Assembly: GCF_035084215.1 (NCBI RefSeq)
Contig: NC_090364.1
Location: 4,464,001-4,528,000, forward strand
Direction of reading: 5' to 3'
DNA from: Heptranchias perlo
Taxonomy: Eukaryota
DNA length: 64,000 bases
This document shows, in pieces, positions 1,066-45,372 of the stretch; positions within the stretch are counted from its first letter, which is position 1; each line of letters opens with the position of its first letter. The notes beneath the pieces were generated by a model. It did not search any database, was not told the origin of the DNA, and saw nothing but the letters and a program-made list of their open reading frames with translations. Position numbers and translations under genes: made by a program.

Positions 1066-1094
1066 GGCAAGAGCACAGCGCAACCTACTTAAAC

Positions 1095-3844: not shown

Positions 3845-3920
3845 TATTGCAAAGCTCTGATTGGCTCTGGATATCAATCTCTCCCCCAGAGCCCTGTCCT
3901 TTGTTAATTGGTGCTTGGAT
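3845..3920 (+). repeat. 76-bp ferritin-promoter fragment between Tx1 copies A and B
   Basis: tattgcaaagctctgattggctctgg...ttgttaattggtgcttggat aligns with ferritin promoters (e.g. 49148-49227); same sequence as 10407-10482. Confidence 0.9.
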
Positions 3921-4016
3921 TTTTTTTCTTTTTTTTTATTAGGCCCCCCTTTTATAAGAAGGGGTGGTGTGGGGTGTGCTTAACAACTAAAAACCAAACA
4001 AACCAAAACCAAGAGT

Positions 4017-7000
4017 TCAAATCAAAATTTTATTATCCTCGTTCAGGATGCACTCCAGCCCCTGCGGTGCCCACCGGTCGCGGAAAGCCTCGAGTGTACC
4101 GGCAGACACCGCGTGCTCCATCTCCAGGGCCACCCGGGCGCGGAGCAACCCGCGAAAGAGAGGCAGACAGGCCGAGCGCCCACCCCCGCGGACCGCGAGC
4201 ATCCTGGACCTGTGGATAGCCACCTTGGACAGGCCCAGGAGCAGGCCCACGAGAACGTCCACCGACCTGCCCGCCCCCCTCCTCACCGGGCGGCCAAAGA
4301 TCAGGAGCGTGGGACTGAAATGCAGCCAGAACTTGAGGAGCAGCCCCTTCAAATAATGGAACAGGGGCTGCAGTCTCGCACACCCGGTGTACAGATGGAA
4401 CACGGACTCCTCCAGGCCGCAGAAATCGCAAGCGGCCTGGGTGTCCGTAAAATGGCGTAACCGCCGGTTGCACGCGACTGCTCCGTGCGCCACCCTCCAC
4501 CCCAGATCCCCAAAGTAACACGGGAGGACCCCTGTATAGAGAGCCTCCCAATGGGGACCCCCGTCTCCGCCGGACGGCAGGATGGTACGCCAGGGCGTGT
4601 CCGGGCGAGAGACGAGGGCGAGGAAGTGGATGGTGTGCAGGAGCAGCCCGTACAGGAAATCCCTCCGCGCGGTGTGAAACGGCACGGAGGGAATTTCCGA
4701 GAGACGACTCAAGTTGTGAGGCGCGGCCCCCCGAGGGAGGTTCCGGGGTTTGGCGCCGAGGAGGAACTCCGTCCGAACGGGGGTCAGGTCGGACGGGATG
4801 GCTCCGCACGCCTGAGCCGCCTCCACATCCCGAGTGGAGTCAGGGCCGAGCGCCGATTTCAACGCCCGGATGGCGATGGCCGCGTCCCCGGCACGCCACG
4901 AGGACATCCGTGCGGCGAGCGCCCACGGCTCCAACCAACCCGACCCACCGCCATCCAGGACGTCCCTGACTCTGGTCACCCGACCGGCCACGGCCCTCCG
5001 CACCGACAGCCGCGAGTGGCCGAAGCCGATATCGCGGAGGAACGGATTCCCGAGCAGCGGCTCCTGCAGGACGGCCGCTACCCCTGACGGGCGAGAGCTC
5101 CGACCGGAGGCGACCATGTTCCAGACCCTGAGCAGATCCTGGTAAAAGACAGGCAGCTCCTGCAAAGACGTGCGGCCGCCCACCAGCGAGATGAACAGGA
5201 GCTGCGTGTCGTAGTTCAGGCCGTGCAGCTGGCGGAAAAAATACGTCGCCAGCGCACGCCATCTAAGAGGACGCTCAACGTACAGGTATCGCCGCAGCGT
5301 CCGAAGGCGGAAAGTTGCCACCTGGGTGCGGACGCACACCAGCCCCTGACCGCCCTCCCTAAGCGGGAGACTCAGGACCGCGGCAGCGACCCAGTGTATC
5401 CCTCTGGCCCAGAAGAAGTCGACAAACTTCTTCTGAATCTTGGCGACAAACTCAGGGGGGGGGGGTCAAAGTGACCAACCGGTACCACAACATGGCGGCC
5501 ACCAGCTGGTTTATGACCAGCACACGACCCCTGTAGGATAACACTCGGAGCAGTCCTGTCCAGCGCGCCAGGCGAGCGGCGACCTTGGCCTCCAGCTCTT
5601 CCCAGTTCGCCGGCCAGGCTTCCTCGGCAGGGCCGAGGTAGACTCCCAGGTACCGGAGGTGCGTGGTACTCCAGGCGAAAGGCCTGAGCTCCTCCGGCAT
5701 GGAGTCCACCCGCCACTGACCCACCAGGAGTCCGGAACATTTCTCCCAGTTGATCCTTGCGGAAGACGCCGCAGAGTAGACCTCTTGGCACTCGCGCATC
5801 CTCCGCAAGTCAAGGGGATCCGTGACCACGAGGAGCACGTCGTCGGCGTAAGCCGAAAGGACGACCTCCACGTCCGGCTCGCGCAGAGCCAGTCCCGACA
5901 ACCTCTTGCGCAAGAGGCGCAGGAAAGGCTCCACGCAGACGGTGTATAATTGGCCGGACATGGGGCACCCCTGACGCACTCCTCTCCCGAAGCGAAGGGG
6001 CGCCGTCAAGGATCCGTTAACCTTAATCAGACACTCCGCGGCGGCGTACAGAAGTCGGATCCGGGCGACGAAATGCGACCCGAACCCGAAAGCGCGCAGA
6101 GTCCCGAATAGATACTCGTGATCCACCCTGTCGAACGCCTTCTCCTGATCTAAGGAAAGGAAGGCGACCGACAGACCAGCCCTCTGGGAATGGTGGATCA
6201 GGTCCCGGACGAGATGGATGTTATCGTGGATCTTCCGGCCCGGGACCGTGTAGGACTGGTCGGGGTGGATCATGTGGGCCAGCACGGTGCCCAGGCGAGC
6301 AGACATCGCCTTGGCAAAGACCTTATAATCCGTGCTGAGGAGGGAGACCGGGCGCCAGTTTTTAAGGTTGCGGAGATCCCCCTTCTTAGGCAGCAGGACC
6401 ACGACCGCCCTGCGCCACGAAAGGGGCATCTCCCCGGTCGCCAGACATTCCCCCAGGACCCGCGCGTAGTCGCCCCCCAGGACGTCCCAGAAGGCCCTGA
6501 GGAACTCCACGGTCAGCCCGTCCAGCCCCGGGGACTTGCCCCTGGAGAGCTGGTGGAGGGCGCCGGTCAGCTCCGCCAAACTGAGCGGAGCGTCCAGACG
6601 CTCGGCGTCCTCCGGGCCGACCTTCGGCAAGTCCTCCCACAAAACTCTGCGCGCCTCCTCGCTGGACGGATCCGGAGAGAACAGAGCCTCGTAGAAAGAT
6701 CGAGCCCGGGCCCTGACTCCCTCCGGGTCCGAGACGAGGGACCCGTCGTCGGCCAGCAGCGTAAGGAGCTGCTTACGAGCCCCCCGCCGCTTTTCCAGCG
6801 AGTAGAAGAAGGGAGAGCCGCGGTCCAGGTCCCGCAGGAGCTGGAGCCGCGACCTCACGTACGCTCCTCGGGACCCGACCAGTTGCAGGTCCCTCAGAGC
6901 GTCCTTCCTCTCCTCGTACACCTGCCGCAGGGCCGGATCCTCGGCGGCCTGACCGAGACGGGACTCCAGGCCAAGCACCTCCTGCTCCAACCGCCTGACC

Positions 7001-7923
7001 TCGGACTCCCGCCTCTTAGTCGACCCCCTCGCGTACTCTTGACAGAAGAGGCGGACGTGAGCCTTGCCCACGTCCCACCATAGCCTCAAGGAGGAGAAGC
7101 CTCCCCGCTTCCCTCTCCAGTCGCTCCAGAACAGACGGAACGAGTCCCGGAACCGCGCGTCCTCCAGCAGCCGGTTGTTAAAGTGCCAGTACGCGGACCC
7201 CGACCGGGCGCGGAGCAGAGCGAGCTCCATCCACACCAGGTGGTGGTCCGAGCACGACACCGGCCGGATGGAGGCCGACGGGACGCAGGAGGCGTACGCC
7301 CGCGAAACGTACAGGCGGTCGATTCTGGTGCTCCCTCCTGCAGCCCTCACAAAGGTGAACTGGCCGGAGTCGGGATGGAGATTCCGCCAGACGTCCACCA
7401 AGTCGAAGGACCCGACCAGGTCCCTCAACTTCTCCGTCGCCGTTCGGGCACGCGCGGGACCGGAGCGGTCCCTCGCCTCGAGGGTACGGTTAAAATCCCC
7501 CCCGAGGATAATGCACTCGCCGGCGTCGACGGAGTTTAGGTAAGTAGACACTTCTTCAAAGAAGCTCACTTGCTCGCCCTCGGACCAGGGGGCGTACACG
7601 TTCACCAGGTGAAGCGGCACGTCCCCGTGGCGAAGGGCTACGTGGAGCAAGCGGCCCGGCACCGGCTCCTTGACCCCCAAGATCTCCGGCTGAAAAGTCG
7701 GGGCCAACAAGATGGCCACCCCGCTCGAAACGCTGGCGAGGTGACTCAAGTAGACCCCCCCTCCCCATTCCAGGATCCACGTGGCCTCGTCTCCCGGAAC
7801 GGTGTGGGTTTCCTGCAGAAAGCACACCGCATACTTCCCGTCCCGCAGGACCGAGAACTTGTCAAATCTACGGCGGGCGTCTCTGCCGCCGTTGATGTTG
7901 AGGCTGGCTATGGTTATCTCCAT
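4017..7923 (-). CDS. Copy B ORF2 (APE + RT + C-terminal zinc finger), frameshift in G-run at ~5455-5465
   Basis: FLQETH, GGDFN, SDHH; LDQEKAFDRVDH, GVRQGCPMSG, YADD; CDFC..H..C. G11 here versus G10 in copies C and D. Confidence 0.9.
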
Positions 7924-7952
7924 GGCAAGAGCACAGCGCAACCTACTTAAAC

Positions 7953-9996
7953 CTAACGCGCGGAGGGAGCGGGGCCGCTAGTCGACCGCCACTCCCTCAA
8001 GAGCCCGGTGAGGAGGGATCTGAGCCGACGCAGCCCGACCCCGCCGCCGTCCCCTTCCGCGGCCACGGACGCGACGGCGGCCAGGACCGAGCGGATTAAC
8101 TGCGCCGGCTCCGACCAACGGTCGAGGGCCAGCCGGACGCCATCGCGACGACGGCTCCAACCGGACGCAAAATCCCGGAGTTCCTCAACGGGGATGAGGG
8201 GAGACTCGGTGCAGGGCACGAGGGCGTCCACCACCTCACTGGCGGCGAACTCTAAATCCTCCCCAGTGCCCACCACCGAGTCCCCGTCCTCCTCCGGATC
8301 ATCGTCGCCCGCGGCCGACCCGCTCCCCGCACAAAGCGCGGAGAACGAGACGGCCGCGCCGGCCGGCCCCGCCTCCGCCACGATCCCACCCCCAGGATCG
8401 TCGGCAGAGGAGTCCTCCCCGGGCTCCACCGGGGGGTCCGAGTCAGACGGCGGCGCCGGGCGGGGACCCTCCCCAGCCTCCGAGCGGTGAAAAACCGGCA
8501 CCCGGATATAAGGGGAACCCGGGGAAACCGGGGAGAACGTGTACTCAAGTTCTCCCACCTCCCCCGGCTCCGAGCCCAGAGACTGAGAGGAGGGGGTCTC
8601 CCCACCCACGTCGCCACCGACCGACCCGGCCGGTGAGATATTTTGATTAAAACCCACCACCAGGTCGAGCAGGTCCTGGGAGAGTTCGAGCCGGGGGCAG
8701 ACGAATTTGGCCGCAACGGCCTCGCCCACCCCGACACCCAGGACGCCCGACCCGGTGAACATGGTAGTGTCGGGTAAATGCGGAGCCGCGACCCCCCCTA
8801 TCGGCGGGGTCTCTCCATCCCCCCCCGGGAGGCACGGGCACTATCTCCTCCCCCCGAGAGGTGGATGACCCCCGCCGCTGTTCGGATGTCACGGGCGGGG
8901 CCGCAGGATCCGCGACCGGCACCGACTCCCCTTCCACGGGGGGCCGTCCCTTAGCAGGGAGCCCGTTCGCTTCCGGGGAGTGGTGCCTCTTTTTCTTCCA
9001 GGAGGGTCGCGGAGGGAGGGGGGACTCCATGTCTGCTGGGACCCCCGCCTCCGCTCCCTCCTGATCACCCGCCAGCCCGGGCTCTGTCGCGACCGCGAGA
9101 TGTTGACTGGCCGCGGTCACGGCCTCGGGCTGACTGAGATCTTCTCTGTCCCGGGGACCAGCCTCTAGATTCTTCCTCTTTCTCCGCGCCTTTCTCTGGC
9201 GAGGGTTCCCCTCCTCCCCCCTGGCGGAGGCCTCGACGCCAACCTCCACCCGCGCAGTTGACTCTCCCGACGCGGGGGCGGGGTTGGGGGGAGGAGCGGT
9301 GGCGGCGCCAGCCCCGGCCGCCGAAGCTGTTTTGGCGGCCTGAGAGGCAGGGCAGTTCCTCTTCAGGTGCCCCACCTCCTTACAGGCATGGCACCGCCCA
9401 CCCTCTGCCGTCCAAAAGACGCGGTAAGGGGTCCCCTCGTGGAGGGCGTTAAAGCCCCCCTCCGTAACCTCCTCCCGTGCCAGCTTGACGAATGCCTGGC
9501 GACGGAAGGAGTAAACATGCCGGAGGCTGTTCTCCCTGAGTCCGAGCGGCAGCGGCGTTACCCCCGACCTCACCTCCCCCAGTTGACGTAGGTGGGGGAG
9601 GAGGAGCTCGTCCGACAGGAAAGGCGGGACGTTGGATAAAATGACTCGCTGCGCGGTGGCCTCCAGCGGGTCCACCGGCAGGAAGGTCCCGCCAACCGTG
9701 AGCCCCTTACTAAGGGCCAGGGACACCGCCCGCTCGGACCTCAGGAAGAACACCGCCCTCCCGTACATTTTCGAGGCCGCGACGATGGCCGAGGGGCCGA
9801 CAACCTCGGCCATGGCCTTAACGCAGGCCTCAATGGTCATGTTGGGGTGGGCGTAGCTCTTCACCCCATGCTTCCTCGTAATGAGGCGGAAAGGCGCCGG
9901 CCCAGCAGGAGCGGCACGAACTGTAGGAGCGGCCCCCGAGGTAACCGCCGCATACGTCCTGCTGGGTCCCGGCACCGGCGAAGATGGTGAAGCCAT
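7953..9996 (-). CDS. Copy B ORF1, frameshift in C-run near 8820
   Basis: ORFs 8647..9996 and 7953..8762 together match ORF1 of copy A. Confidence 0.85.
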
Positions 9997-10406
9997 GACC
10001 TAAAGAGCCACACCCACCCCAAGTCTCAGGCCTTTGGATTGAAATTGGCCTCTTTTTTTTAAATGAAAACCTTGAGGAAAACCTCTCTCCCCGAATCCCA
10101 GTGCTTGGATGGGAGAGGGGCCCCTTTGTTGGTTTTTAAATTCCCCAAGAACACCCCGGAGAGCAAGGGAATATCCCAGAGAGCAGGAGAAGGTGGGAGG
10201 GATGGATGGCGGAATGGGAAGGACCGACCACCTCTTCCTCCCACTGGTTGGTGCTCTTTTTCTCCTTCTCCCTCCCTCCTTGTTGATGGTGGTTTCTCCT
10301 TCTCCCCAAGGGACCCAGGCAAGGGCCTGCTCTCTCTGCTCTCTCTGCTCTCCACTCCACTCAGTGGCAGTCCAGCCACAAACACCTCCAAGGCCTTGCT
10401 GGTCTG

Positions 10407-10482
10407 TATTGCAAAGCTCTGATTGGCTCTGGATATCAATCTCTCCCCCAGAGCCCTGTCCTTTGTTAATTGGTGCTTGGAT
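10407..10482 (+). repeat. 76-bp ferritin-promoter fragment between Tx1 copies B and C
   Basis: Same sequence as 3845-3920; ends GGAT followed by poly(T). Confidence 0.9.
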
Positions 10483-10578
10483 TTTTTTTCTTTTTTTTTA
10501 TTAGGCCCCCCTTTTATAAGAAGGGGTGGTGTGGGGTGTGCTTAACAACTAAAAACCAAACAAACCAAAACCAAGAGT

Positions 10579-13500
10579 TCAAATCAAAATTTTATTATCC
10601 TCGTTCAGGATGCACTCCAGCCCCTGCGGTGCCCACCGGTCGCGGAAAGCCTCGAGTGTACCGGCAGACACCGCGTGCTCCATCTCCAGGGCCACCCGGG
10701 CGCGGAGCAACCCGCGAAAGAGAGGCAGACAGGCCGAGCGCCCACCCCCGCGGACCGCGAGCATCCTGGACCTGTGGATAGCCACCTTGGACAGGCCCAG
10801 GAGCAGGCCCACGAGGACGTCCACCGACCTGCCCGCCCCCCTCCTCACCGGGCGGCCAAAGATCAGGAGCGTGGGACTGAAGCGCAGCCAGAACTTGAGG
10901 AGCAGCCCCTTCAAATAATGGAACAGGGGCTGCAGTCTCGCACACCCAGTGTACAGATGGAACACGGACTCCTCCAGGCCGCAGAAAATGCAAGCGGCCT
11001 GGGTGTCCGTAAAATGGCGTAAACGCCTGTTGCACGGGACTGCTCCGTGCAACACCCTCCACCCCAGATCCCCAAAGTAACACGGGAGGACCCCTGTATA
11101 GAGAGCCTCCCACTGGGGACCCCCGTCTCCGCCGGATGGCACGCCAGGGCGTGTCCGGCCGAGAGACGAGGGCGAGGAAGTGGATGGTGTGCAGGAGCAG
11201 CCTGTACAGGAAATCCCTCCGCGCGGTGTGAAACGGCACGGAGGGAATTTCCGAGAGACGACTCAAGTTGTGAGGCACAGCCCCCCGAGGGAGGTTCCGG
11301 GGTTTGGCGCCGAGGAGGAACTCCGTCCGAACGGGGGTCAGGTCGGACGGGATGGCTCCGCACGCCTGAGCCGCCTCCACATCCCGAGTGGAGTCAGGTC
11401 CGTGCGCCGATTTCAACGCCTGGATGGCGGCGGCCGCGTCCCCGGCACGCCATGAGGACATCCGTGCGGCGAGCGCCCACGGCTCCAACCAACCCGACCC
11501 ACCGCCATCCAGGACGTCCCTGACTCTGGTCACCTGACCGGCCACGGCCCTCCGCACCGACAGCCGCGAGTGGCCGAAGCCGATATCGCGGAGGAACGGA
11601 TTCCCGAGCAGCGGCTCCTGCAGGACGGCCGCTACCCCTGACGGGCGAGAGCTCCGACCGGAGGCGACCATGTTCCAGACCCTGAGCAGATCCTGGTAAA
11701 AGACAGGCAGCTCCTGCAAAGACGTGCGGCCGCCCACCAGCGAGACGAACAGGAGCTGCGTGTCGTAGTTCAGGCCGTGCAGCTGGCGGAAAAAATACGT
11801 CGCCAGCGCACGCCATCTAAGAGGACGCTCAACGTACAGGTATCGCCGCAGCGTCCGAAGGCGGAAAGTTGCCACCTGGGTGCGGACGCACACCAGCCCC
11901 TGACCGCCCTCCCTAAGCGGGAGACTCAGGACCGCGGCAGCGACCCAGTGTATCCCTCTGGCCCAGAAGAAGTCGACAAACTTCTTCTGAATCTTGGCGA
12001 CAAACTCAGGGGGGGGGGTCAAAGTGACCAACCGGTACCACAACATGGCGGCCACCAGCTGGTTTATGACCAGCACACGACCCCTGTAGGATAACACTCG
12101 GAGCAGTCCTGTCCAGCGCGCCAGGCGAGCGGCGACCTTGGCCTCCAGCTCTTCCCAGTTCGCCGGCCAGGCTTCCTCGGCAGGGCCGAGGTAGACTCCC
12201 AGGTACCGGAGGTGCGTGGTACTCCAGGCGAAAGGCCTGAGCTCCTCCGGCAGGGAGTCCACCCGCCACTGACCCACCAGGAGTCCGGAACATTTCTCCC
12301 AGTTGATCCTTGCGGAAGACGCCGCAGAGTAGACCTCTTGGCACTCGCGCATCCTCCGCAAGTCAAGGGGATCCGTGACCACGAGGAGCACGTCGTCGGC
12401 GTAAGCCGAAAGGACGACCTCCACGTCCGGCTCGCGCAGAGCCAGTCCCGACAACCTCTTGCGCAGGAAAGGCTCCACGCAGACGGCGTATAATTGGCCG
12501 GACATGGGGCACCCCTGACGCACTCCTCTCCCGAAGCGAAGGGGCGCCGTCAAGGATCCGTTAACCTTAATCAGACACTCCGCGGCGGCGTACAGAAGTC
12601 GGATCCGGGCGACGAAATGCGACCCGAACCCGAAAGCGCGCAGAGTCCCGAATAGATACTCGTGATCCACCCTGTCGAACGCCTTCTCCTGATCTAAGGA
12701 AAGGAAGGCGACCGACAGACCAGCCCTCTGGGAATGGTGGATCAGGTCCCAGACCAGATGGATGTTATCGTGGATCTTCCGGCCCGGGACCGTGTAGGAC
12801 TGGTCGGGGTGGATCATGTGGGCCAGCACGGTGCCCAGGCGAGCAGACATCGCCTTGGCAAAGACCTTATAATCCGTGCTGAGGAGGGAGACCGGGCGCC
12901 AGTTTTTAAGGTTGCGGAGATCCCCCTTCTTCGGCAGCAGGACCACGACCGCCCTGCGCCACGAAAGGGGCATCTCCCCGGTCGCCAGACATTCCCCCAG
13001 GACCCGCGCGTAGTCGCCCCCCAGGACGTCCCAGAAGGCCCTGAGGAACTCCACGGTCAGCCCGTCCAGCCCCGGGGATTTGCCCCTAGAGAGCTGGTGG
13101 AGGGCGCCGGTCAGCTCCGCCAAACTGAGCGGAGCGTCCAGACGCTCGGCGTCCTCCGGGCCGACCTTCGGCAGGTCCTCCCACAAAACTCTGCGCGCCT
13201 CCTCGCTGGACGGATCCGGAGAGAACAGAGCCTCGTAGAAAGATCGAGCCCGGGCCCTGACTCCCTCCGGGTCCGAGACGAGGGACCCGTCGTCGGCCAG
13301 CAGTGTAAGGAGCTGCTTACGAGCCCCCCGCCGCTTTTCCAGCGAGTAGAAGAAGGGAGAGCCGCAGTCCAGGTCCCGCAGGAGCTGGAGCCGCGACCTC
13401 ACGTACGCTCCTCGGGACCCGACCAGTTGCAGGTCCCTCAGAGCGTCCTTCCTCTCCTCGTACACCTGCCGCAGGGCTGGATCCTCGGCGGCCTGACCGA

Positions 13501-14467
13501 GACGGGACTCCAGGCCAAGCACCTCCTGCTCCAACCGCCTGACCTCGGACTCCCGCCTCTTAGTCGACCCCCTCGCGTACTCTTGACAGAAGAGGCGGAC
13601 GTGAGCCTTGCCCACGTCCCACCATAGCCTCAAGGAGGAGAAGCCTCCCCGCTTCCCTCTCCAGTCGCTCCAGAACAGACGGAACGAGTCCCGGAACCGC
13701 GCGTCCTCCAGCAGCCGGTTGTTAAAGTGCCAGTACGCGGACCCCGACCGGGCGCGGAGCAGAGCGAGCTCCATCCACACCAGGTGGTGGTCCGAGCACG
13801 ACACCGGTCGGATGGAGGCCGACGGGACGCAGGAGGCGTACGCCCGCGAAACGTACAGGCGGTCGATTCTGGAGCTCCCTCCTCCGGCCCTCACAAAGGT
13901 GAACTGGCCGGAGTCGGGATGGAGATTCCGCCAGACGTCCACCAAGTCGAAGGACCCGACCAGGTCCCTCAACTTCTCCGTCGCCGTTCGGGCACGCGCG
14001 GGACCGGAGCGGTCCCTCGCCTCGAGGGTACGGTTAAAATCCCCCCCGAGGATAATGCACTCGCCGGCGTCGACGGAGTTTAGGTAAGTGGACACTTCTT
14101 CAAAGAAGCTCACTTGCTGGGCTCCGGACCAGGGGGCGTACACGTTCACCAGGTGAAGCGGCACGTCCCCGCGGCGAAGGGCCACGTGGAGCAAGCGGCC
14201 CGGCACCGGCTCCTTGACCCCCAAGATCTCCGGCTGAAAAGTCGGGGCCAACAAGATGGCCACCCCGCTCGAAACGCTGGCGAGGTGACTCAAGTAGACC
14301 CCCCCTCCCCATTCCAGGATCCACGTGGCCTCGTCTCCCGGAACGGTGTGGGTTTCCTGCAGAAAGCACACCGCATACTTCCCGTCCCGCAGGACCGAGA
14401 ACTTGTCAAATCTACGGCGGGCGTCTCTGCCGCCGTTGATGTTGAGGCTGGCTATGGTTATCTCCAT
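10579..14467 (-). CDS. Copy C ORF2; 9-nt deletion in RT (~12462) and a frameshifting deletion near 11137
   Basis: ORF 10595..14485 runs out of frame after PDTPWR; the zinc-finger end is in ORF 10579..11142. Confidence 0.88.
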
Positions 14468-14496
14468 GACAAGAGCACAGCGCAACCTACTTAAAC

Positions 14497-16526
14497 CTAA
14501 CGCGCGGAGGGAGCGGGGCCGCTAGTCGACCGCCACTCCCTCAAGAGCCCGGTGAGGAGGGATCTGAGCCGATGCAGCCCGACCCCGCCGCCGTCCCCTT
14601 CCGCGGCCACGGACGCGACGGCGGCCAGGACCGAGCGGATTAACTGCGCCGGCTCCGACCAACGGTCGAGGGCCAGCCGGACGCCATCGCGACGACTGCT
14701 CCAACCGGACGCAAAATCCCGGAGTTCCTCAACGGGGATGAGGGGAGACTCGGTGTCGGGCACGAGGGCGTCCACCACCTCACTGGTGGCGAACTCCAAA
14801 TCCTCCCCAGTGCCCACCACCGAGTCCCCGTCCTCCTCCGGGTCATCGTCGCCCGCGGCCGACCCGCTCCCCGCACAAAGCGCGGAGAACGAGACGGCCG
14901 CGCCAGCCGGCCCCGCCTCCGCCACGATCCCACCCCCAGGATCGTCGGCAGAGGAGTCCTCCCCGGGCTCTACTGGGGGCTCCGGGTCAGAGGGCGGCGC
15001 CGGGCGGGGACCCTCCCCAGCCTCCGAGCGGTGAAAAACCGGCACCCGGATATAGGGGGAAACCGGGGAGAACGTGTACTCAAGTTCTCCCACCTCCCCC
15101 GGCTCCGAGCCCAGAGACTGAGAGGAGGGGGTCTCCCCACCCACGTCGCCAGCGACCGACCCGGCCGGTGAGATATTTTGGTTAAAACCCACCACCAGGT
15201 CAAGCAGGTCCTGGGAGAGGTCGAGCCGGGGGCAGACGAATTTGGCCGCAACGGCCTCGCCCACCCCGGCACCCAGGACGCCCGACCCGGTGAACAGGGT
15301 AGTGTCGGGTAACTGCGGAGCCGCGACCCCCCCTATCGGCAGGGTCTCTCCATCCCCCCCGGGAGGCACGGGCACGATCTCCTCCCCCCCGAGAGGTAGA
15401 TGACCCCCGCCGCTGTTCGGATGTCACGGGCGGGGCCGCAGGATCCGCGACCGTCACCGACTCCCCTTCCACGGGGGGCCGTCCCTTAGCAGGGAGCCCG
15501 TTCGCTTCCGGGGAGTGGCGCCTCTTTTTCTTCCCGGGGGGTCGCGGAGGGAGGGGGAACTCCATGTCTGCTGGGACCCCCGCCTCCGCTCCCTCCTGAT
15601 CACCCGCCAGCCCGGGCTCTGTCGCGACCGCGAGATGTTGACTGGCCGCGGTCACGGCCTCGGGCTGACTGAGATCTTCTCTGTCCCGGGGACCAGCCTC
15701 TAAGTTCTTCCTCTTTCTCCGCGCCTTTCTCTGGCGAGGGTTCCCCTCCTCCCCCCTGGCGGAGACCTCGACGCCAACCTCCACCCGCGCAGTTGACTCT
15801 CCCGACGCAGGGGCGGGGTTGGGGGGAGGAGCGGTGGCGGCGCCAGCCCCGGCCGCCGTAGCTGTATTGGCGGCCTGAGAGGCAGGGCAGTTCCTCTTCA
15901 GGTGCCCCACCTCCTTACAGGCATGGCACCGCCCACCCTCTGCCGTCCAAAAGACGCGGTAAGGGGTCCCCTCGTGGAGGGCGTTAAAGCCCCCCTCCGT
16001 AACCTCCTCCCGTGCCAGCTTGACTAATGCCTGGCGACGGAAGGAGTAAACATGCCGGAGGCTGTTCTCCCTGAGTCCGAGCGGCAGCGGCGTTACCCCC
16101 GACCTCACCTCCCCCAGTTGACGTAGGTGGGGGAGGAGGAGCTCGTCCGACAGGAAAGGCGGGACGTTGGATAAAATGACCCGCTGCGCGGTGGCCTCCA
16201 GCGGGTCCACCGGCAGGAAGGTCCCGCCCACCGTGAGCCCCTTACTAAGGGCCAGGGACACCGCTCGCTCGGACCTCAGGAAGAACACCGCCCTCCCGTA
16301 CATTTTTGAGGCCGCGACGATGGCCGAGGGGCCGACAACCTCGGCCATGGCCTTAACGCAGGCCTCAATGGTCATGTTGGGGTGGGCGTAGCTCTTCACC
16401 CCATGCTTCCTCGTAATGAGGCGGAAAGGCGCCGGCCCAGCAGGAGCGGCACGAACTAGGAGCGGCCCCCGAGGTAACCGCCGCATACGTCCTGGGTCCC
16501 GGCACCGGCGAAGATGGTGACGCCAT
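14497..16526 (-). CDS. Copy C ORF1, frameshifted near the N-terminus and at ~15385
   Basis: ORFs 15200..16552 and 14497..15375; small indels relative to copies A/B. Confidence 0.82.
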
Positions 16527-17223
16527 GACTCAAGGAGCCACACCCACCCCAAGTCTCAGGCCTTCTGAAGGATATTGGCCTTTTTTTTTAAAGTCAACCT
16601 TGAGGAAAACCTCTCTCCCCGAATCCCAGTGCTTGGTTGGGAGAGGGCCCCTTTTTTTGGTTTTCAAATTTTCCCCAAGAACACCCCGGAGAGAAAGGGA
16701 ATATCCTGGAGAGCAAGAGAAGGAGGGAGCGATGGATGGCAGAATGGGAAGGAGGGAGTCTGCAGGGGTCGGCTGCTGCAGAAGTGGGTGGAAGAGGGGC
16801 GGGGTTGCACCTTAAAAGGTGGATCTTCTTCTGCCTGTCTTCCGGTGGGCAGGGGGAGGAGATGTCTTCCCCAAGACAGCTGGAGCTGCCGAGGCTCAGT
16901 CCTCCAAAGATTTGAAGAAGTAAGTAACTTCACCCAGGCAGCTCCAGCTGTCCTGGGCCGGACACTTGGGGGGGAGCCCCCTGTCCTCTGAAGTCTTCTT
17001 CCTCCCCCTACCTTCAGCCGACGCACCTCACTGCACCGACCACCTCTTCCTCCCTCTGTTGGTGCTCTTTACTTCTCCCTCCCTCCTTGTTGATGGTGGT
17101 TTCTCCTCCTTCTCCTCCTTCTCCCCAAGGGACCCAGGCAAGGACCTGCTCTCTGCTCTCTCTGCTCTCCACTCCACTCAGTGGCAGTCCAGCCACAAAC
17201 ACCTCCAAGGCCTTGCTGGTCTG

Positions 17224-17383
17224 AACAAAGAGTCACTTTCAGATTGGTGGGAAGTCAAAGAGCCCAAAAGCAGTGACATCACTGAGACTGATCATCCAAA
17301 CCGGACTGTATTCCAAACCACTGATTGGCTCTGGGTATCAATCCCGCCCCCATAACCCGTCCTTTGTTAATTGGTGCCTGGAT
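17224..17383 (+). repeat. 160-bp ferritin-promoter fragment between Tx1 copies C and D
   Basis: Direct repeat of 24151-24310 (promoter of ferritin 1); ends GGAT followed by poly(T). Confidence 0.92.
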
Positions 17384-17488
17384 TTTTTTTTTTTTTTTTT
17401 CTCTTCTCTAATTAGGCCCCCCTTTTATAAGAAGGGGGGTGTGGGGTGTGCTTAACAACTAAAAACCAAACAAACCAAAACCAAGAGT

Positions 17489-20400
17489 TCAAATCAAAAT
17501 TTTATTATCCTCGTTCAGGATGCACTCCAGCCCCTGCGGTGCCCACCGGTCGCGGAAAGCCTCAAGCGTACCGGCAGACACCGCGTGCTCCATCTCCAGG
17601 GCCACCCGGGCGCGGAGCAACCCGCGAAAGAGAGGCAGACAGGCCGAGCGCCCACCCCCGCGGACCGCGAGCATCCTGGACCTGTGGATAGCCACCTTGG
17701 ACAGGCCCAGGAGCAGGCCCACGAGGACGCCCACCGACCTGCCCGCCCCCCTCCTCACCGGGCGGCCAAAGATCAGGAGCGTGGGACTGAAGTGCAGCCA
17801 GAACTTGAGGAGCAGCCCCTCCAAATAATGGAACAGGGGCTGCAGTCTCGCACACCCAGTGTACAAATGAAAAACGGACTCCTCCAGGCCGCAGAAAATG
17901 CAAGCGGCCTGGGTGTCCGTAAAATGGCGTAAACGCCTGTTGCACGGGACTGCTCCGTGCAACACCCTCCACCCCAGATCCCCAAAGTAACACGGGAGGA
18001 CCCCTGTATAGAGAGCCTCCCACTGGGGACCCCCGTCTCCGCCGGACGGCAGGATGGTACGCCAGGGCGTGTCCGGGCGAGAGACGAGGGCGAGGAAGTG
18101 GATGGTGTGCAGGAGCAGCCCGTACAGGAAATCCCTCCGCGCGGTGTGAAACAGCACGGAGGGAATTTCCGAGAGACGGCTCAAGTTGTGAGGCGCGGCC
18201 CTCCGAGGGAGGTTCCGGGGTTTGGCGCCGAGGAGGAATTCCGTCCGAACGGGGGTCAGGTCGGACGGGATGGCTCCGCACGCCTGAGCCGCCTCCACAC
18301 CCCGAGTGGAGTCAGGGCCGAGCGCCGATTTCAACGCCTGGATGGCGGCGGCCGCGTCCCCGGCACGCCACGAGGACATGCGAGCGGCGAGCGCCCACGG
18401 CTCGAGCCAACCCGACCCTCCGCCATCCAGGACGTCCCTGACTCTGGTCACCCGACCGGCCACAGCCCTCCGCTCCGTCAGCCACGAGCGGCTGAAGCCG
18501 ACATCGCGGAGGAACGGATTCCCGAGCAGCGGCTCCTGCAGGACGGCCGCTACCCCCGACGGGCGAGAGCTCCGGCTGGAGGCGACCATGGTCCAGACCC
18601 TGAGCAGATCCTGGTACAAGACAGGCAGCTCCTGCAAAGACGTGCGGCCGCCCACCAGCGAGACGAACAGGAGCTGCGTGTCGTAGTTCAGGCCGTGCAG
18701 CTGGCGGAAAAAATACGTCGCCAGCGCACGCCATCTAAGAGGACGCTCAACGTACAGGTATCGCTGCAGCATCCGAAGGCGGAAAGTTGCCACCTGGGTG
18801 CGGACGCACACCAGCCCCTGACCGCCCTCCCTAAGCGGGAGACTCAGGACCGCGGCAGCGACCCAGTGCATCCCTTTGGCCCAGAAGAAGTCGACGAACT
18901 TCCTCTGAATCTTGGCGACAAAATCAGGGGGGGGGGTCAAAGGAACCAACCGGTACCACAACATGGCGGCCACCAGCTGGTTTATGACCAGCACTCGACC
19001 CCTGTAGGATAACACTCGGAGCAGTCCTGTCCAGCGCGCCAGGCGAGCGGTGACTTTGGCCTCCAGCTCTACCCAGTTCGCCGGCCAGGCTTCCTCGGCA
19101 GGGCCGAGGTAGACTCCCAGGTACCGGAGGTGCGTGGTGCTCCAGGCGAAAGCCCTGAGCTCCTCCGGCATGGAGTCCACCCGCCACTGACCCACCAGGA
19201 GTCCGGAACATTTCTCCCAGTTGATTCTTGCGGAGGACGCGGCAGAGTAGACCTCTTGGCACTCGCGCATTCTCCGCAAGTCAAGGGGATCGGTGACCAT
19301 GAGGAGCACGTCGTCGGCGTAAGCCGAAAGGACGACCTCCACGCCCGGCTCGAGCAGAGCCAGTCCCGACAGCCTCTTTCGCAAGAGGTGCAGGAAAGGC
19401 TCTACGCAGATGGTATATAATTGGCCGGACATGGGGCACCCCTGACGCACTCCTCTCCCGAAGCGAAGGGGCGCCGTCAAGGATCCGTTAACCTTAATCA
19501 GACACTCCGCGGCGGCGTACAGAAGTCGGATCCGGGCGACGAAATGCGACCCGAATCCGAAAGCGCGCAGAGTCCCGAATAGATACTCGTGATCCACCCT
19601 GTCGAACGCCTTCTCCTGATCCAAGGAAAGGAAGGCGACCGACAGACCAGCCCTCTGGGAATGGTGGATCAGGTCCCGGACCAGGTGGATGTTATCGTGG
19701 ATCGTCCGGCCCGGGACCGTGTAGGACTGGTCGGGGTGGATCATGTGGTCCAGCACGGTGCCGAGGCGAGCAGACATCGCCCTGGCGAAGACCTTATAAT
19801 CCGTGCTGAGGAGGGAGACCGGGCGCCAGTTTTTAAGGTTGCGGAGATCCCCCTTCTTAGGCAGCAGGACCACGACCGCCCTGCGCCACGAAAGGGGCAT
19901 CTCCCCGGTCGCCAGACATTCCCCCAGGACCCGCGCGTAGTCGCCCCCCAGGACGTCCCAGAAGGCCCTGAGGAACTCCACGGTCAGCCCGTCCAGCCCC
20001 GGGGATTTGCCCCTAGAGAGCTGGTGGAGGGCGCCGGTCAGCTCCGCCAAACTGAGCGGAGCGTCCAGACGCTCGGCGTCCTCCGGGCCGACCTTCGGCA
20101 AGTCCTCCCACAAAACTCTGCGCGCCTCCTCGCTGGACGGATCCGGAGAGAACAGAGCCTCGTAGTAAGATCGAGCACGGGCCCTGACTCCCTCCGGGTC
20201 CGAGACGAGGGACCCGTCGTCGGCCAGCAGCGTAAGGAGCTGCTTACGAGCCCCCCGCCGCTTTTCCAGCGAGTAGAAGAAGGGAGAGCCGCGGTCCAGG
20301 TCCCGCAGGAGCTGGAGCCGCGACCTCACGTACGCTCCTCGGGACCCGACCAGTTGCAGGTCCCTCAGAGCGTCCTTCCTCTCCTCGTACACCTGCCGCA

Positions 20401-21394
20401 GGGCCGGATCCTCGGCGGCCTGACCGAGACGGGACTCCAGGCCAAGCACCTCCTGCTCCAACCGCCTGACCTCGGACTCCCGCCTCTTAGTCGACCCCCT
20501 CGCGTACTCTTGACAGAAGAGGCGGACGTGAGCCTTGCCCACGTCCCACCATAGCCTCAAGGAGGAGAAGCCTCCCCGCTTCCCTCTCCAGTCGCTCCAG
20601 AACAGACGGAACGAGTCCCGGAACCGCGCGTCCTCCAGCAGCCGGTTGTTAAAGTGCCAGTACGCGGACCCCGACCGGGCGCGGAGCAGAGCGAGCTCCA
20701 TCCACACCAGGTGGTGGTCCGAGCACGACACCGGTCGGATGGAGGCCGACGGGACGCAGGAGGCGTACGCCCGCGAAACGTACAGGCGGTCGATTCTGGA
20801 GCTCCCTCCTCCGGCCCTCACAAAGGTGAACTGGCCGGAGTCGGGATGGAGATTCCGCCAGACGTCCACCAAGTCGAAGGACCCGACCAGGTCCCTCAAC
20901 TTCTCCGTCGCCGTTCGGGCACGCGCGGGACCGGAGCGGTCCCTCGCCTCGAGGGTACGGTTAAAATCCCCCCCGAGGATAATGCACTCGCCGGCGTCGA
21001 CGGAGTTTAGGTAAGTGGACACTTCTTCAAAGAAGCTCACTTGCTGGGCTCCGGACCAGGGGGCGTACACGTTCACCAGGTGAAGCGGCACGTCCCCGCG
21101 GCGAAGGGCCACGTGGAGCAAGCGGCCCGGCACCGGCTCCTTGACCCCCAAGATCTCCGGCTGAAAAGTCGGGGCCAACAAGATGGCCACCCCGCTCGAA
21201 ACGCTGGCGAGGTGACTCAAGTAGACCCCCCCTCCCCATTCCAGGATCCACGTGGCCTCGTCTCCCGGAACGGTGTGGGTTTCCTGCAGAAAGCACACCG
21301 CATACTTCCCGTCCCGCAGGACCGAGAACTTGTCAAATCTACGGCGGGCGTCTCTGCCGCCGTTGATGTTGAGGCTGGCTATGGTTATCTCCAT
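17489..21394 (-). CDS. Copy D ORF2: intact APE endonuclease / reverse transcriptase / zinc finger polyprotein (~1300 aa)
   Basis: ORF 17489..21412 uninterrupted; first ATG at 21394; catalytic motifs FLQETH, GDFN, SDH, YADD and CIFC..H..C present. Confidence 0.95.
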   Translation of the reverse strand: MEITIASLNINGGRDARRRFDKFSVLRDGKYAVCFLQETHTVPGDEATWILEWGGGVYLSHLASVSSGVAILLAPTFQPEILGVKEPVPGRLLHVALRRGDVPLHLVNVYAPWSGAQQVSFFEEVSTYLNSVDAGECIILGGDFNRTLEARDRSGPARARTATEKLRDLVGSFDLVDVWRNLHPDSGQFTFVRAGGGSSRIDRLYVSRAYASCVPSASIRPVSCSDHHLVWMELALLRARSGSAYWHFNNRLLEDARFRDSFRLFWSDWRGKRGGFSSLRLWWDVGKAHVRLFCQEYARGSTKRRESEVRRLEQEVLGLESRLGQAAEDPALRQVYEERKDALRDLQLVGSRGAYVRSRLQLLRDLDRGSPFFYSLEKRRGARKQLLTLLADDGSLVSDPEGVRARARSYYEALFSPDPSSEEARRVLWEDLPKVGPEDAERLDAPLSLAELTGALHQLSRGKSPGLDGLTVEFLRAFWDVLGGDYARVLGECLATGEMPLSWRRAVVVLLPKKGDLRNLKNWRPVSLLSTDYKVFARAMSARLGTVLDHMIHPDQSYTVPGRTIHDNIHLVRDLIHHSQRAGLSVAFLSLDQEKAFDRVDHEYLFGTLRAFGFGSHFVARIRLLYAAAECLIKVNGSLTAPLRFGRGVRQGCPMSGQLYTICVEPFLHLLRKRLSGLALLEPGVEVVLSAYADDVLLMVTDPLDLRRMRECQEVYSAASSARINWEKCSGLLVGQWRVDSMPEELRAFAWSTTHLRYLGVYLGPAEEAWPANWVELEAKVTARLARWTGLLRVLSYRGRVLVINQLVAAMLWYRLVPLTPPPDFVAKIQRKFVDFFWAKGMHWVAAAVLSLPLREGGQGLVCVRTQVATFRLRMLQRYLYVERPLRWRALATYFFRQLHGLNYDTQLLFVSLVGGRTSLQELPVLYQDLLRVWTMVASSRSSRPSGVAAVLQEPLLGNPFLRDVGFSRSWLTERRAVAGRVTRVRDVLDGGGSGWLEPWALAARMSSWRAGDAAAAIQALKSALGPDSTRGVEAAQACGAIPSDLTPVRTEFLLGAKPRNLPRRAAPHNLSRLSEIPSVLFHTARRDFLYGLLLHTIHFLALVSRPDTPWRTILPSGGDGGPQWEALYTGVLPCYFGDLGWRVLHGAVPCNRRLRHFTDTQAACIFCGLEESVFHLYTGCARLQPLFHYLEGLLLKFWLHFSPTLLIFGRPVRRGAGRSVGVLVGLLLGLSKVAIHRSRMLAVRGGGRSACLPLFRGLLRARVALEMEHAVSAGTLEAFRDRWAPQGLECILNEDNKILI

Positions 21395-21423
21395 GACAAG
21401 AGCACAGCGCAACCTACTTAAAC

Positions 21424-23453
21424 CTAACGCGCGGAGGGAGCGGGGCCGCTAGTCGACCGCCACTCCCTCAAGAGCCCGGTGAGGAGGGATCTGAGCCGAT
21501 GCAGCCCGACCCCGCCGCCGTCCCCTTCCGCGGCCACGGACGCGACGGCGGCCAGGACCGAGCAGATTAACTGCGCCGGCTCCGACCAACGGTCGAGGGC
21601 CAGCCGGACGCCATCGCGACGACGGCTCCAACCGGACGCAAAATCCCGGAGTTCCTCAACGGGGATGAGGGGAGACTCGGTGTCGGGCACGAGGGCGTCC
21701 ACCACCTCACTGGTGGCGAACTCCAAATCCTCCCCAGTGCCCACCACCGAGTCCCCGTCCTCCTCCGGGTCATCGTCGCCCGCGGCCGACCCGCTCCCCG
21801 CACAAAGCGCGGAGAACGAGACGGCCGCGCCAGCCGGCCCCGCCTCCGCCACGATCCCACCCCCAGGATCGTCGGCAGAGGAGTCCTCCCCGGGCTCTAC
21901 TGGGGGCTCCGGGTCAGAGGGCGGCGCCGGGCGGGGACCCTCCCCAGCCTCCGAGCGGTGAAAAACCGGCACCCGGATATAGGGGGAAACCGGGGAGAAC
22001 GTGTACTCAAGTTCTCCCACCTCCCCCGGCTCCGAGCCCAGAGACTGAGAGGAGGGGGTCCCCCCACCCACGTCGCCAGCGACCGACCCGGCCGGTGAGA
22101 TATTTTGGTTAAAACCCACCACCAGGTCAAGCAGGTCCTGGGAGAGGTCGAGCCGGGGGCAGACGAATTTGGCCGCAACGGCCTCGCCCACCCCGGCACC
22201 CAGGACGCCCGACCCGGTGAACAGGGTAGTGTCGGGTAACTGCGGAGCCGCGACCCCCCCTATCGGCAGGGTCTCTCCATCCCCCCCGGGAGGCACGGGC
22301 ACGATCTCCTCCCCCCCGAGAGGTAGATGACCCCCGCCGCTGTTCGGATGTCACGGGCGGGGCCGCAGGATCCGCGACCGTCACCGACTCCCCTTCCACG
22401 GGGGGCCGTCCCTTAGCAGGGAGCCCGTTCGCTTCCGGGGAGTGGCGCCTCTTTTTCTTCCCGGGGGGTCGCGGAGGGAGGGGGAACTCCATGTCTGCTG
22501 GGACCCCCGCCTCCGCTCCCTCCTGATCACCCGCCAGCCCGGGCTCTGTCGCGACCGCGAGATGTTGACTGGCCGCGGTCACGGCCTCGGGCTGACTGAG
22601 ATCTTCTCTGTCCCGGGGACCAGCCTCTAAGTTCTTCCTCTTTCTCCGCGCCTTTCTCTGGCGAGGGTTCCCCTCCTCCCCCCTGGCGGAGACCTCGACG
22701 CCAACCTCCACCCGCGCAGTTGACTCTCCCGACGCAGGGGCGGGGTTGGGGGGAGGAGCGGTGGCGGCGCCAGCCCCGGCCGCCGTAGCTGTATTGGCGG
22801 CCTGAGAGGCAGGGCAGTTCCTCTTCAGGTGCCCCACCTCCTTACAGGCATGGCACCGCCCACCCTCTGCCGTCCAAAAGACGCGGTAAGGGGTCCCCTC
22901 GTGGAGGGCGTTAAAGCCCCCCTCCGTAACCTCCTCCCGTGCCAGCTTGACTAATGCCTGGCGACGGAAGGAGTAAACATGCCGGAGGCTGTTCTCCCTG
23001 AGTCCGAGCGGCAGCGGCGTTACCCCCGACCTCACCTCCCCCAGTTGACGTAGGTGGGGGAGGAGGAGCTCGTCCGACAGGAAAGGCGGGACGTTGGATA
23101 AAATGACCCGCTGCGCGGTGGCCTCCAGCGGGTCCACCGGCAGGAAGGTCCCGCCCACCGTGAGCCCCTTACTAAGGGCCAGGGACACCGCTCGCTCGGA
23201 CCTCAGGAAGAACACCGCCCTCCCGTACATTTTTGAGGCCGCGACGATGGCCGAGGGGCCGACAACCTCGGCCATGGCCTTAACGCAGGCCTCAATGGTC
23301 ATGTTGGGGTGGGCGTAGCTCTTCACCCCATGCTTCCTCGTAATGAGGCGGAAAGGCGCCGGCCCAGCAGGAGCGGCACGAACTAGGAGCGGCCCCCGAG
23401 GTAACCGCCGCATACGTCCTGGGTCCCGGCACCGGCGAAGATGGTGACGCCAT
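21424..23453 (-). CDS. Copy D ORF1, frameshifted as in copy C
   Basis: ORFs 22127..23479 and 21424..22302. Confidence 0.82.
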
Positions 23454-24150
23454 GACTCAAGGAGCCACACCCACCCCAAGTCTCAGGCCTTCTGAAGGAT
23501 ATTGGCCTTTTTTTTTAAAGTCAACCTTGAGGAAAACCTCTCTCCCCGAATCCCAGTGCTTGGTTGGGAGAGGGCCCCTTTTTTTGGTTTTCAAATTTTC
23601 CCCAAGAACACCCCGGAGAGAAAGGGAATATCCTGGAGAGCAAGAGAAGGAGGGAGCGATGGATGGCAGAATGGGAAGGAGGGAGTCTGCAGGGGTCGGC
23701 TGCTGCAGAAGTGGGTGGAAGAGGGGCGGGGTTGCACCTTAAAAGGTGGATCTTCTTCTGCCTGTCTTCCGGTGGGCAGGGGGAGGAGATGTCTTCCCCA
23801 AGACAGCTGGAGCTGCCGAGGCTCAGTCCTCCAAAGATTTGAAGAAGTAAGTAACTTCACCCAGGCAGCTCCAGCTGTCCTGGGCCGGACACTTGGGGGG
23901 GAGCCCCCTGTCCTCTGAAGTCTTCTTCCTCCCCCTACCTTCAGCCGACGCACCTCACTGCACCGACCACCTCTTCCTCCCTCTGTTGGTGCTCTTTACT
24001 TCTCCCTCCCTCCTTGTTGATGGTGGTTTCTCCTCCTTCTCCTCCTTCTCCCCAAGGGACCCAGGCAAGGACCTGCTCTCTGCTCTCTCTGCTCTCCACT
24101 CCACTCAGTGGCAGTCCAGCCACAAACACCTCCAAGGCCTTGCTGGTCTG

Positions 24151-24480
24151 AACAAAGAGTCACTTTCAGATTGGTGGGAAGTCAAAGAGCCCAAAAGCAG
24201 TGACATCACTGAGACTGATCATCCAAACCGGACTGTATTCCAAACCACTGATTGGCTCTGGGTATCAATCCCGCCCCCATAACCCGTCCTTTGTTAATTG
24301 GTGCCTGGATTCATGGAAGATTCCCGAGTGGCTATCGGGGATTGTCAATCATCATTGGTGATGTCATTCCAAGGTTGAATGCCGGCTGTCCCAGTGGTAT
24401 AAATACAAGAGCTTGTGCAGAAAGTGGATAGTTCTATAATTTTCCGGGTAATAGTATTCATATATTAAAAAAAAGTGAAG
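24151..24480 (+). promoter_or_regulatory. Ferritin promoter module (gene 1; repeated before genes 2, 3, 4, 6, 7, 8)
   Basis: TGACATCA 24201-24208, CTGATTGGCT (inverted CCAAT/Y-box) 24248-24257, further ATTGG boxes, TGATGTCA 24359-24366, TATAAATA 24398; equivalent TATA at 30084, 35235, 40011, 49314, 54328, 59554. Confidence 0.8.
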
Positions 24481-27062
<2,582 letters not shown>

Positions 27063-29525: not shown

Positions 29526-29870
29526 TCAAAGGTGACCATCCACAGGTCCTGGCTGGATGCGGCCCGTGGGGGCGGTCGCTCCGACTCTCTGCCTCGCTCC
29601 GCAGCATTCTCTGCGCCCGGGTGGCCCTGGAGAGGGAGCACACGGTGTCTGCTGGTAAACTTGAGGCTTTCCGAGACCGGTGGGAGGCGCAGAGCTCGGA
29701 GTACGTCCTCGACTCCGACAATAAAGTTATGATTTGAATCTGGTTTTGTTGGATTTCGTAATAAAGAAATGAAGGTGACAAAAATACAGGTGACACTGGG
29801 TCTAAAGACAGCAACACAAGTGCCCCATCTTAGAATTATTTTAGTCAAACAGAAGAAAAGAGGGAAAAAC
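29526..29870 (+). mobile_element. Old 5'-truncated Tx1 fragment in the ferritin 2 promoter, sense orientation
   Basis: Encodes ARVALEREHTVSAGKLEAFRDRW (ORF2 C-terminus); flanked by the 13-bp direct repeat aacccaaaaagca (29513-29525, 29871-29883). Confidence 0.85.
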
Positions 29871-39209: not shown

Positions 39210-39789
39210 CCAAAGGTGACCATCCACAGGTCCAGGCTGGACGTGGCACGTGGGGGCGGTCGCTCTGAATCTCGTCTATCATTCTCTGCGACTGGATGGC
39301 CCTGGAGAGGGAGCACGCGGTGTCTGCCGTTATGCTTGAGGCTTTCCGCGACCGGTGGGCACCGGAGGGATTGGAGTGCATCCTGGATCAATACAATAAA
39401 ATTAGAATTTGACACTTATTTTGGGTTTATTGATTTGCTGCACATAAAAACACTCCCTAACCACCCCCCTCCCACCATACTTCTTATAAAAGGGGGGCCG
39501 AAAACAAAGAAGAAGAAAAGAAAACTAGACGAACATCACTAATAAAAAGTCAACCTAGAGAAAAAAAAACTTTCAATCTTATTCGTGTTTGGACAATTAG
39601 TTCCAAACGGGAAAGTTTAACTGGAGTTTGGAGCCCGTGTGGGGATTCGAGTGATCCATGGCCACAGAGCACCGAGGGAATGATTGGACCGTCAACCAGC
39701 CGGCACCAGTACCTCAGGCCAGTCCCACCGTCCCTTCAGAGCTCACTGACCTGCACAAAAAAAGTGCCCCATCTTAGAATTATTTTCGT
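39210..39789 (+). mobile_element. Old 5'-truncated Tx1 fragment plus extra 3' sequence in the ferritin 4 promoter
   Basis: ORF2 C-terminus, 3'UTR motif cttcttataaaaggggggcc, A-rich tract, ~250 bp of unrelated DNA; flanked by caaaaagca repeats. Confidence 0.85.
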
Positions 39790-45021: not shown

Positions 45022-45372
45022 CTGTTGTAATGTCAGAAACGCAGCAACCAAGATGGCCACAGCAAGATCCCACAAAGAACATGAAATATTGATTAGATAA
45101 TCTGTTTTAATTACATTGGTTGAGGGATAAATATTAGCAGAGACACCAGGGAGAACTCCCCTTCTCTCACTCAAATTAGTGCCATGGGATCTTTTACATC
45201 CTAAGTGAGCAGACGGGGCCTCGGTTTAATGTCTCATCCGACTGTACAGCACTCACTGGGTGCTGTGGTGAAGTATCAGCCTGGACTTTGTGCTCAAGTC
45301 CCTGGAGTGGGACTTGAACCCACAACCTTCTGACTCTGAGGTGAGAGTGCTGCCACTGAGTCACAGCTGACA
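45022..45372 (-). mobile_element. DeuSINE copy (interrupted by the LINE)
   Basis: Matches 52967-53315. Confidence 0.72.

Follow-up and report, generated by a model that had tools for sequence, protein, structure and literature searches.

Apparent targeting of ferritin promoters by a tandemly arrayed Tx1-clade LINE with long target duplications in Heptranchias perlo

Target-specific families of the Tx1 clade of non-LTR retrotransposons (LINEs) have been defined by one sequence type occupying more than 20% of their flanks genome-wide, and SINEU-3, an element mobilised by Tx1, forms tandem insertions that sandwich a target-site duplication (both in the available sections of PMC4494074). LINEs with an APE endonuclease usually duplicate 10-20 bp of their target, and in the available part of PMC6895275 a duplication of 126 bp is cited for R9 only, an element of the RLE type. 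That a site-specific element may be transcribed from its flank is a known idea. For human promoters, the accessible portion of PMC4730256 gives a TATA box in 9% of bidirectional vs. 29% of unidirectional promoters and CCAAT in 12.9% vs. 6.9%, and its Table 1 is the source of the initiator (Inr) consensus YYANWYY used below. The comparison literature also includes PMC4640811 and PMC8869645, each in excerpt.

Here we analyze a window of 64,000 nucleotides from Heptranchias perlo (NC_090364.1, positions 4,464,001 to 4,528,000, forward strand), in which a GC-rich element forms a tandem array on the minus strand (1-24150), followed by tandem four-exon ferritin genes on the plus strand (24151-60600) and by two further element pieces, E and F (within 60786-64000). 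The parts of the element are as follows.

1 to 3844, minus strand: copy A, its 3' part lying beyond the window (self-BLAST)
3922 to 10406, minus strand: copy B, with a deletion in the 5' UTR (self-BLAST)
10484 to 17223, minus strand: copy C, a recombinant, its 3' half B-like and its 5' half near-identical to D (alignment)
17385 to 24150, minus strand: copy D, assigned to the Tx1-clade non-LTR retrotransposons, with poly-A tail, 3' stem-loop, ORF2, ORF1 and a 697-nt 5' UTR (self-BLAST, Pfam)
17489 to 21394, minus strand: ORF2 of D, 1301 aa, open, with APE endonuclease and reverse transcriptase (Pfam Exo_endo_phos and RVT_1)
21424 to 23453, minus strand: ORF1 region of D, frameshifted, with a weak zf-CCHC match below the Pfam cut-off (Pfam)
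23454 to 24150, minus strand: 5' UTR of D, 697 nt, CpG-poor (o/e 0.21; terminal 200 bp 0.07) and without an NF-Y consensus (composition, motif scan)
60786 to 63038, minus strand: copy E, with an internal deletion and about 94% identity to the other copies, sharing the 5' junction of C and D (self-BLAST)

We assign the element to the Tx1 clade, judging by its proteins, because ORF2 of D carries APE endonuclease and reverse transcriptase (RT) domains and is 50% identical to Xenopus Tx1 ORF2 (YTX2_XENLA; 653/1299 aligned residues), its best full-length named match; the nearest proteins are likewise of the Tx1 type, and the highest identities over longer stretches come from partial matches in Hemitrygon (71%) and Heterodontus (68%), pointing to a cartilaginous fish as the probable host. 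An ORF1 zinc knuckle (zf-CCHC, E=6e-4, just under the Pfam cut-off) and a 3' poly-A tail, seen as poly-T runs on the plus strand, agree with this placement. Counted from its ATG, ORF1 is 53 aa long in C and D owing to the frameshift, and 517, 449 and 353 aa long in A, B and E, respectively, while ORF2 is open in both C and D. A 24-base pattern of the element end had no match in metagenome contigs, and a scan with the endonuclease domain returned 10 distant loci (29-61% in the best segment), none of which (0/10) matched the ferritin unit.

The 5' end of D (24150) lies head-to-head with the ferritin ATG (24481) at a distance of 330 bp, confirming an arrangement from which an earlier note had proposed that the element is transcribed from the ferritin promoter run backwards. 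The features that surround its junctions are these.

3845 to 3921, plus strand: A/B spacer, with the sequence of the B/C spacer (alignment)
10407 to 10483, plus strand: B/C spacer, 77 bp, from another ferritin paralog, with a CTG microhomology joint
17224 to 17384, plus strand: C/D spacer, 161 bp, identical to the flank of D at 161/161 positions (alignment)
24145 to 24151, minus strand: Inr-like 5' terminus, TCAGACC in C, D and E and CAGACC after an A in A and B (YYANWYY consensus)
24151 to 24311, plus strand: 161-bp promoter segment with a second copy on the far side of D, holding TGACATCA at 24201 and the sole consensus NF-Y/Y-box site at 24249-24257
24307 to 24311, plus strand: intact target site GGATT, directly after which the poly-A joins in B, C and D
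24312 to 24480, plus strand: proximal ferritin promoter and 5' UTR, with ATTGG at 24354, TGATGTCA at 24359 and TATA at 24398
24481 to 27020, plus strand: ferritin (H-type-like) gene facing D, four exons, with an in-frame TGA at 25476-25478 (exon 2) and an altered stop codon
63039 to 63070, plus strand: 32-bp promoter remnant at the 5' end of E, of the D-type variant, with GGATT at its end

The array spacers terminate exactly at the 3' insertion site at all three junctions, and since each promoter piece extends to the GGATT at that site, about 90 bp upstream of the ferritin TATA, we read the pieces as probable long target duplications of 77 and 161 bp; the short duplication of about 10-20 bp typical of APE LINEs is not seen. 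D itself has the form of such a duplication because the same 161 bases flank it on both sides. All five visible 5' ends and three of the five visible 3' ends join a ferritin promoter, counts to be read with the window being a ferritin locus and the copies non-independent; the 3' ends of E and F (2/5) have no direct GGATT joint. The earlier note had held that A, B and C each carry a piece of the promoter facing D. Each does carry a promoter piece, as does E (63039-63070), but the 77-bp spacers of A and B match the D-facing promoter at only 69/79 letters and the seven paralogs of the window at 64-73/79, none exactly, and they come from a ferritin paralog beyond the window. The piece at C is indeed identical to 24151-24311, but it does not count as a separate witness, for the 5' half of C is a recombination copy of D. 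Taken together, these junctions point to an apparent preference for the promoters of a protein-coding gene family, with very long duplications.

Recombination within the array bears directly on how many insertions can be counted. In its 5' half, C differs from D at 3 of 3701 aligned letters and has the same ORF1 frameshift, while its 3' half differs from B at 35/2874 letters vs. 84/2873 from D, with a switch point at about 20200-20700 in D coordinates. By this alignment C is a B/D mosaic, which makes the A-D array a product of two lineages joined by unequal crossover; because A and B share one junction and C derives from D, the four copies supply two independent junctions rather than four. E diverges from A-D by about 15% in an ORF1 segment equivalent to about 22170-22560, compared with 1-7% in other bins, and so looks like another mosaic.

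Several further observations were made around the insertion sites. Older relics of Tx1-like 3' ends, 73-79% identical and in opposite orientation (29526-29766, 39213-39525, 48516-48827 and 53770-54010), lie 400-567 bp upstream of four of the other six ferritin ATGs, a hint that Tx1 families have long been associated with the ferritin upstream region. The letters ATT are common to all seven poly-T junctions tabulated. Short poly-T-headed segments stand between the junction and the 3' ends of F (63069-63201) and E (60602-60786); either 3' transductions or tails left by other, truncated LINEs could account for them, and the F segment contains a hairpin with an 11-bp stem (z -2.19). Each type of 5' junction follows a CCAAT pentamer at a distance of 20-24 bases, and the nick precedes one by 10 bases, a spacing that was noticed post hoc over few events and may be chance; bound NF-Y might set the positions of cutting or joining.

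The reading that we tentatively prefer is that a Tx1 LINE favours ferritin promoters as targets, produces long duplications and makes its RNA from its own Inr and 5' UTR, that is, from a promoter of its own. The endonuclease would nick the plus strand right after GGATT, and reverse transcription primed at the nick would place the element antisense to ferritin, as suggested by the junctions under the standard TPRT model. The 5' end would be joined 77 or 161 bp further upstream through 2-3 bases of microhomology, whereby a long promoter piece is duplicated and the site beside the gene rebuilt, and repeated insertion, which we infer, together with unequal crossover, supported by the recombination seen in C, would generate tandem arrays with promoter-piece spacers. 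The RNA would most likely start at the Inr-like first bases of the element, driven by the 700-nt 5' UTR, with the head-to-head layout a by-product of insertion geometry. In TPRT, the nicked strand sets the orientation of the insertion, and because orientation follows from the strand nicked, head-to-head placement is no evidence of promoter use. Head-to-head orientation and promoter pieces, the grounds given for backwards use of the promoter, are thus weak, the former being explained by the nicked strand and the latter by target duplication and recombination.

All five visible 5' ends terminate at one and the same CAGACC, at either of the two promoter positions to which they are joined. This makes an RNA start at the first bases of the element itself likelier than one in the flank, and speaks against transcripts that begin within the flank and carry part of it. 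The full Inr match TCAGACC occurs in C, D and E, its first T being supplied by the flank, and such a hexamer occurs seven times within the 697-base UTR. Composition and a motif scan revealed no CpG island and no NF-Y site in the 5' UTR of D, so no internal promoter is visible there, and by eye there is no canonical DPE at +28 to +32. A pattern search of the 5' UTR for splice sites gave no strong acceptor and one weak donor-like site.

The motifs between the element and the gene were the other support for backwards transcription. The claimed positions hold, with ATTGG ahead of the ATG at 24170, 24251, 24297 and 24354 and ATF-like sites at 24201 (TGACATCA) and 24359 (TGATGTCA), but an enrichment of CCAAT does not, as the 330 bp contain 4 pentamers vs. 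1.63 expected (p=0.07, non-significant, 5000 dinucleotide shuffles) and just one of the four (24249-24257) fits the NF-Y consensus RRCCAATVR. The pair of ATF-like sites exceeds the shuffles (2 vs. 0.03 expected, p=0.0008) for a motif picked after being seen. The suggestion of germline or oocyte expression, which rested on the single Y-box-like core in the promoter (p=0.04, shuffles), is unsupported.

Seven ferritin copies with promoter and exon 1 lie in the window, six of them without an attached element. The sense TATA is conserved in 7/7, with CCAAT boxes at about -44, -71, -101 and -149 from it, and because this fixed spacing is kept in the six element-free paralogs, the CCAAT and ATF-like motifs are, as far as sequence comparison goes, ordinary parts of a ferritin promoter. 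The promoter facing D has lost the -71 box, which 4/6 other paralogs retain, and the gene behind it is a probable pseudogene because of the in-frame TGA in exon 2 and the altered stop codon. Pfam Ferritin matched two of four exons tested, and H-chain structures match as well. The paralogs are 90-100% alike in their exons and far less so in their introns. A search of the whole window against Rfam gave no match at gathering score and hence no IRE; the short 5' UTRs (24420-24480 and its paralogs) accordingly look like those of an IRE-less, tandemly expanded ferritin family. In two of the seven promoters (ATG 35321 and 59641) the GGATT target is gone through a 7-bp deletion, and the genes themselves look broken, by a 2-bp deletion in exon 3 and a truncation in exon 2, respectively. 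A 5'-truncated LINE with an RT domain (401-aa frame) occupies 43581-45022, with a tail that presumably resembles shark CR1-type elements, and the ferritin copy next after it, with exon 2 at 45942, is missing exon 1.

We additionally compared the locus with public data, consisting of unstranded contigs from four (X1, X5, X6 and X9) of nine runs, none of the nine recorded as RNA and five of them guessed to be; X1 is of DNA type and X6 RNA by guess. Among the contigs listed, related ones in X1 and X6 diverge from the window sequence at 23453, the start of ORF1, so relatives carry other 5' UTRs, in line with the preferred reading. The A/B junction is present in X1 as a loose end at 24150, and A/B spacer letters occur in X1, X5 and X6. 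A single contig of X6 covers 24233-24537 without a break and shows A/B-type spacer letters; arithmetic on the depth bins probably assigns its 76 unplaced letters to the element end. The A/B junction can therefore abut a full, decayed ferritin promoter, and the contig fits either DNA or unspliced read-through RNA. A contig of X9 (organism B) runs through the target site uninterrupted. Joints of ferritin exons 1 and 2 with GT..AG ends (24565-25352) are found in all four runs, and their presence in the DNA-type run X1 suggests that processed retrocopies of ferritin lie at other places in the genome. Contig depth is an unreliable guide: the X1 contig with A/B spacer letters reaches 1716 vs. 25-60 for low-copy contigs, hinting at tens of copies without being a copy number. 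Depth contrasts between X5 and X6 were not counted as evidence (ferritin exon 2 about 2300-fold apart, element 5' UTR and ORF1 bins about 1.4-fold, terminal bin 3-fold). Promoter and intron bins have similarly low depth relative to DNA, and parts of the element 5' UTR have no cover in X5 and X6.

The strongest competitor of an element-borne promoter is a hybrid arrangement, in our estimate plausible but less likely, in which RNA starts at the element's Inr but depends on reverse action of the host's CCAAT/NF-Y and ATF-like sites, with which the long duplication would provide every arrayed copy. The complete Inr in C, D and E and the CpG-poor 5' UTR would suit it, as would the orientation of the ATTGG boxes, every one of which is CCAAT when read along the element strand, and the consensus NF-Y box, which in C and D precedes the element end by 105 bp. 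In A and B, however, this box lies only 20 bp from the element end, compared with -75 to -80 for CCAAT in the accessible part of PMC4730256, and the 77-bp spacer of these two copies contains neither ATF-like site. The X6 contig with A/B letters has changes at 24399, in the sense TATA, and at 24361, in the proximal ATF-like site, with its ATTGG boxes unchanged among the 40 differences listed (262 stand outside that list), which would also suit the hybrid; against this, the CCAAT count is not above chance and the gene facing D is a probable pseudogene. NF-Y motifs are reported for fish bidirectional promoters in the available text of PMC11676430, and transcription from the antisense flank was proposed for SINEU in Mariner-N4 in that of PMC4494074. 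The TATA-less, GC/CpG-rich core that is typical, though not obligatory, of bidirectional promoters is lacking, since the ferritin promoter is TATA-directed and CpG-poor (GC 0.43, CpG o/e 0.45 next to D); in reverse it offers one consensus box among four pentamers and the Inr-like terminus, with no element-strand TATA within 24151-24400. The human frequencies, if TATA and CCAAT are independent, give a joint bidirectional vs. unidirectional ratio of about 0.6, a weak argument for a fish.

Further from the preferred reading of an element with its own start is read-through, which we hold to be improbable, with an antisense transcript that has its start further upstream, whether in the promoter, in the ferritin gene or in the tandem copy before it, a cDNA end with promoter sequence pairing to the target as in R2, and each lineage keeping its own junction. 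Just two junction types exist, each common to diverged copies (D/E and A/B, 94-98% alike), which fits a junction inherited with the element and upstream target sequence carried on the RNA; duplication and recombination fit too, and unequal crossover accounts for repeated junctions without RNA. E has the junction and flank letters of D, yet it follows a truncated ferritin exon 2 and not a promoter, although E may itself have arisen from two copies by deletion. Contig 21 of X6 spans the promoter and exon 1 and has 76 letters besides, 57 of which the depth in bin 24091-24171 would place on the element end, but intron-containing X6 contigs at similar depth make DNA a sufficient source. R2 offers a precedent (PMC6895275 and PMC12203849, in the sections available); the element's 5' end folds no better than shuffles in 4/4 tests (z -0.67 to 1.19), giving no ribozyme-like structure. 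A candidate HDV-like ribozyme at this end was rejected, with no Rfam match, no significant fold and, under a crude descriptor, nothing in A and a single partial match, rich in wobble pairs, in D.

We would likewise doubt that promoter capture is built into integration, such that the 77-161 bp duplication both rebuilds the host promoter and gives each copy reverse-acting NF-Y/ATF sites upstream of its own Inr. Least probable is that a few old insertions were amplified as DNA with the ferritin array, or partly doubled in assembly, so that the element would neither prefer a target nor be transcribed today: the small number of independent junction events in the window (two or three at most), the 3698/3701 letters and ORF1 frameshift shared by C and D, and several D-type promoter letters unseen in DNA contigs (from which a filter drops records) would suit it, but two different 5' junctions at one 3' site, open ORF2 in C and D, the older Tx1-like relics at 4/6 other paralogs and the A/B junction in an independent DNA run speak against it.

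The main value of the locus appears to be the apparent targeting of ferritin promoters with long duplications, which is more novel than promoter borrowing. In the literature consulted, target-specific LINEs occupy RNA genes, microsatellites, satellites and other transposons, and a protein-coding promoter as target would widen the safe-haven idea; duplications of 77-161 bp by an APE element bear on second-strand cutting and 5' end joining; and should the flank also act as the element's promoter, expression of the element would be coupled to the regulation of ferritin.

Compared with known systems, the locus resembles vertebrate bidirectional promoters in its head-to-head layout within 1 kb and the presence of a CCAAT/NF-Y site, but such promoters are typically TATA-less and GC/CpG-rich (according to the excerpted PMC11676430 and PMC4730256), whereas here the sense TATA is conserved at 43% GC. 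Our literature search, which left Repbase and subscription journals outside its scope, returned no report of Tx1 in ferritin promoters, of such long duplications or of shark ferritin arrays and, at the level of titles and abstract starts, no bidirectional ferritin promoter. Precedents for elements read from their flank, in the available source texts, are the co-transcription of R2 with rDNA, SINEU-2B in Mariner-N4 and MAST2-driven SVA; SINEU lies antisense to its target, as the element does here, while R2, SINEU and SVA carry a ribozyme or flank sequence at their 5' end as described there, and here Rfam, fold and descriptor searches found no ribozyme. In its exceptionally long target duplication the element is like R9Av of Adineta vaga (126 bp, available part of PMC6895275), but R9 is described there as an RLE element in 28S rDNA, and the element here is an APE element with two duplication lengths. 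Closest are Tx1L of Xenopus laevis and the Tx1 clade (Keno, Kibi, Koshi and crocodilian Tx1-Mar), with which it has in common two ORFs, APE and RT domains, a poly-A tail, recurrent insertion at a single site of a multicopy sequence and tandem copies around a target piece. As far as the source texts available extend, the clade targets DNA transposons, LTR elements, U2, U5 and 5S genes, satellites and microsatellites with duplications of about 10-20 bp, whereas here the apparent target is the Pol II promoter of a protein-coding family and the duplications extend over 77-161 bp.
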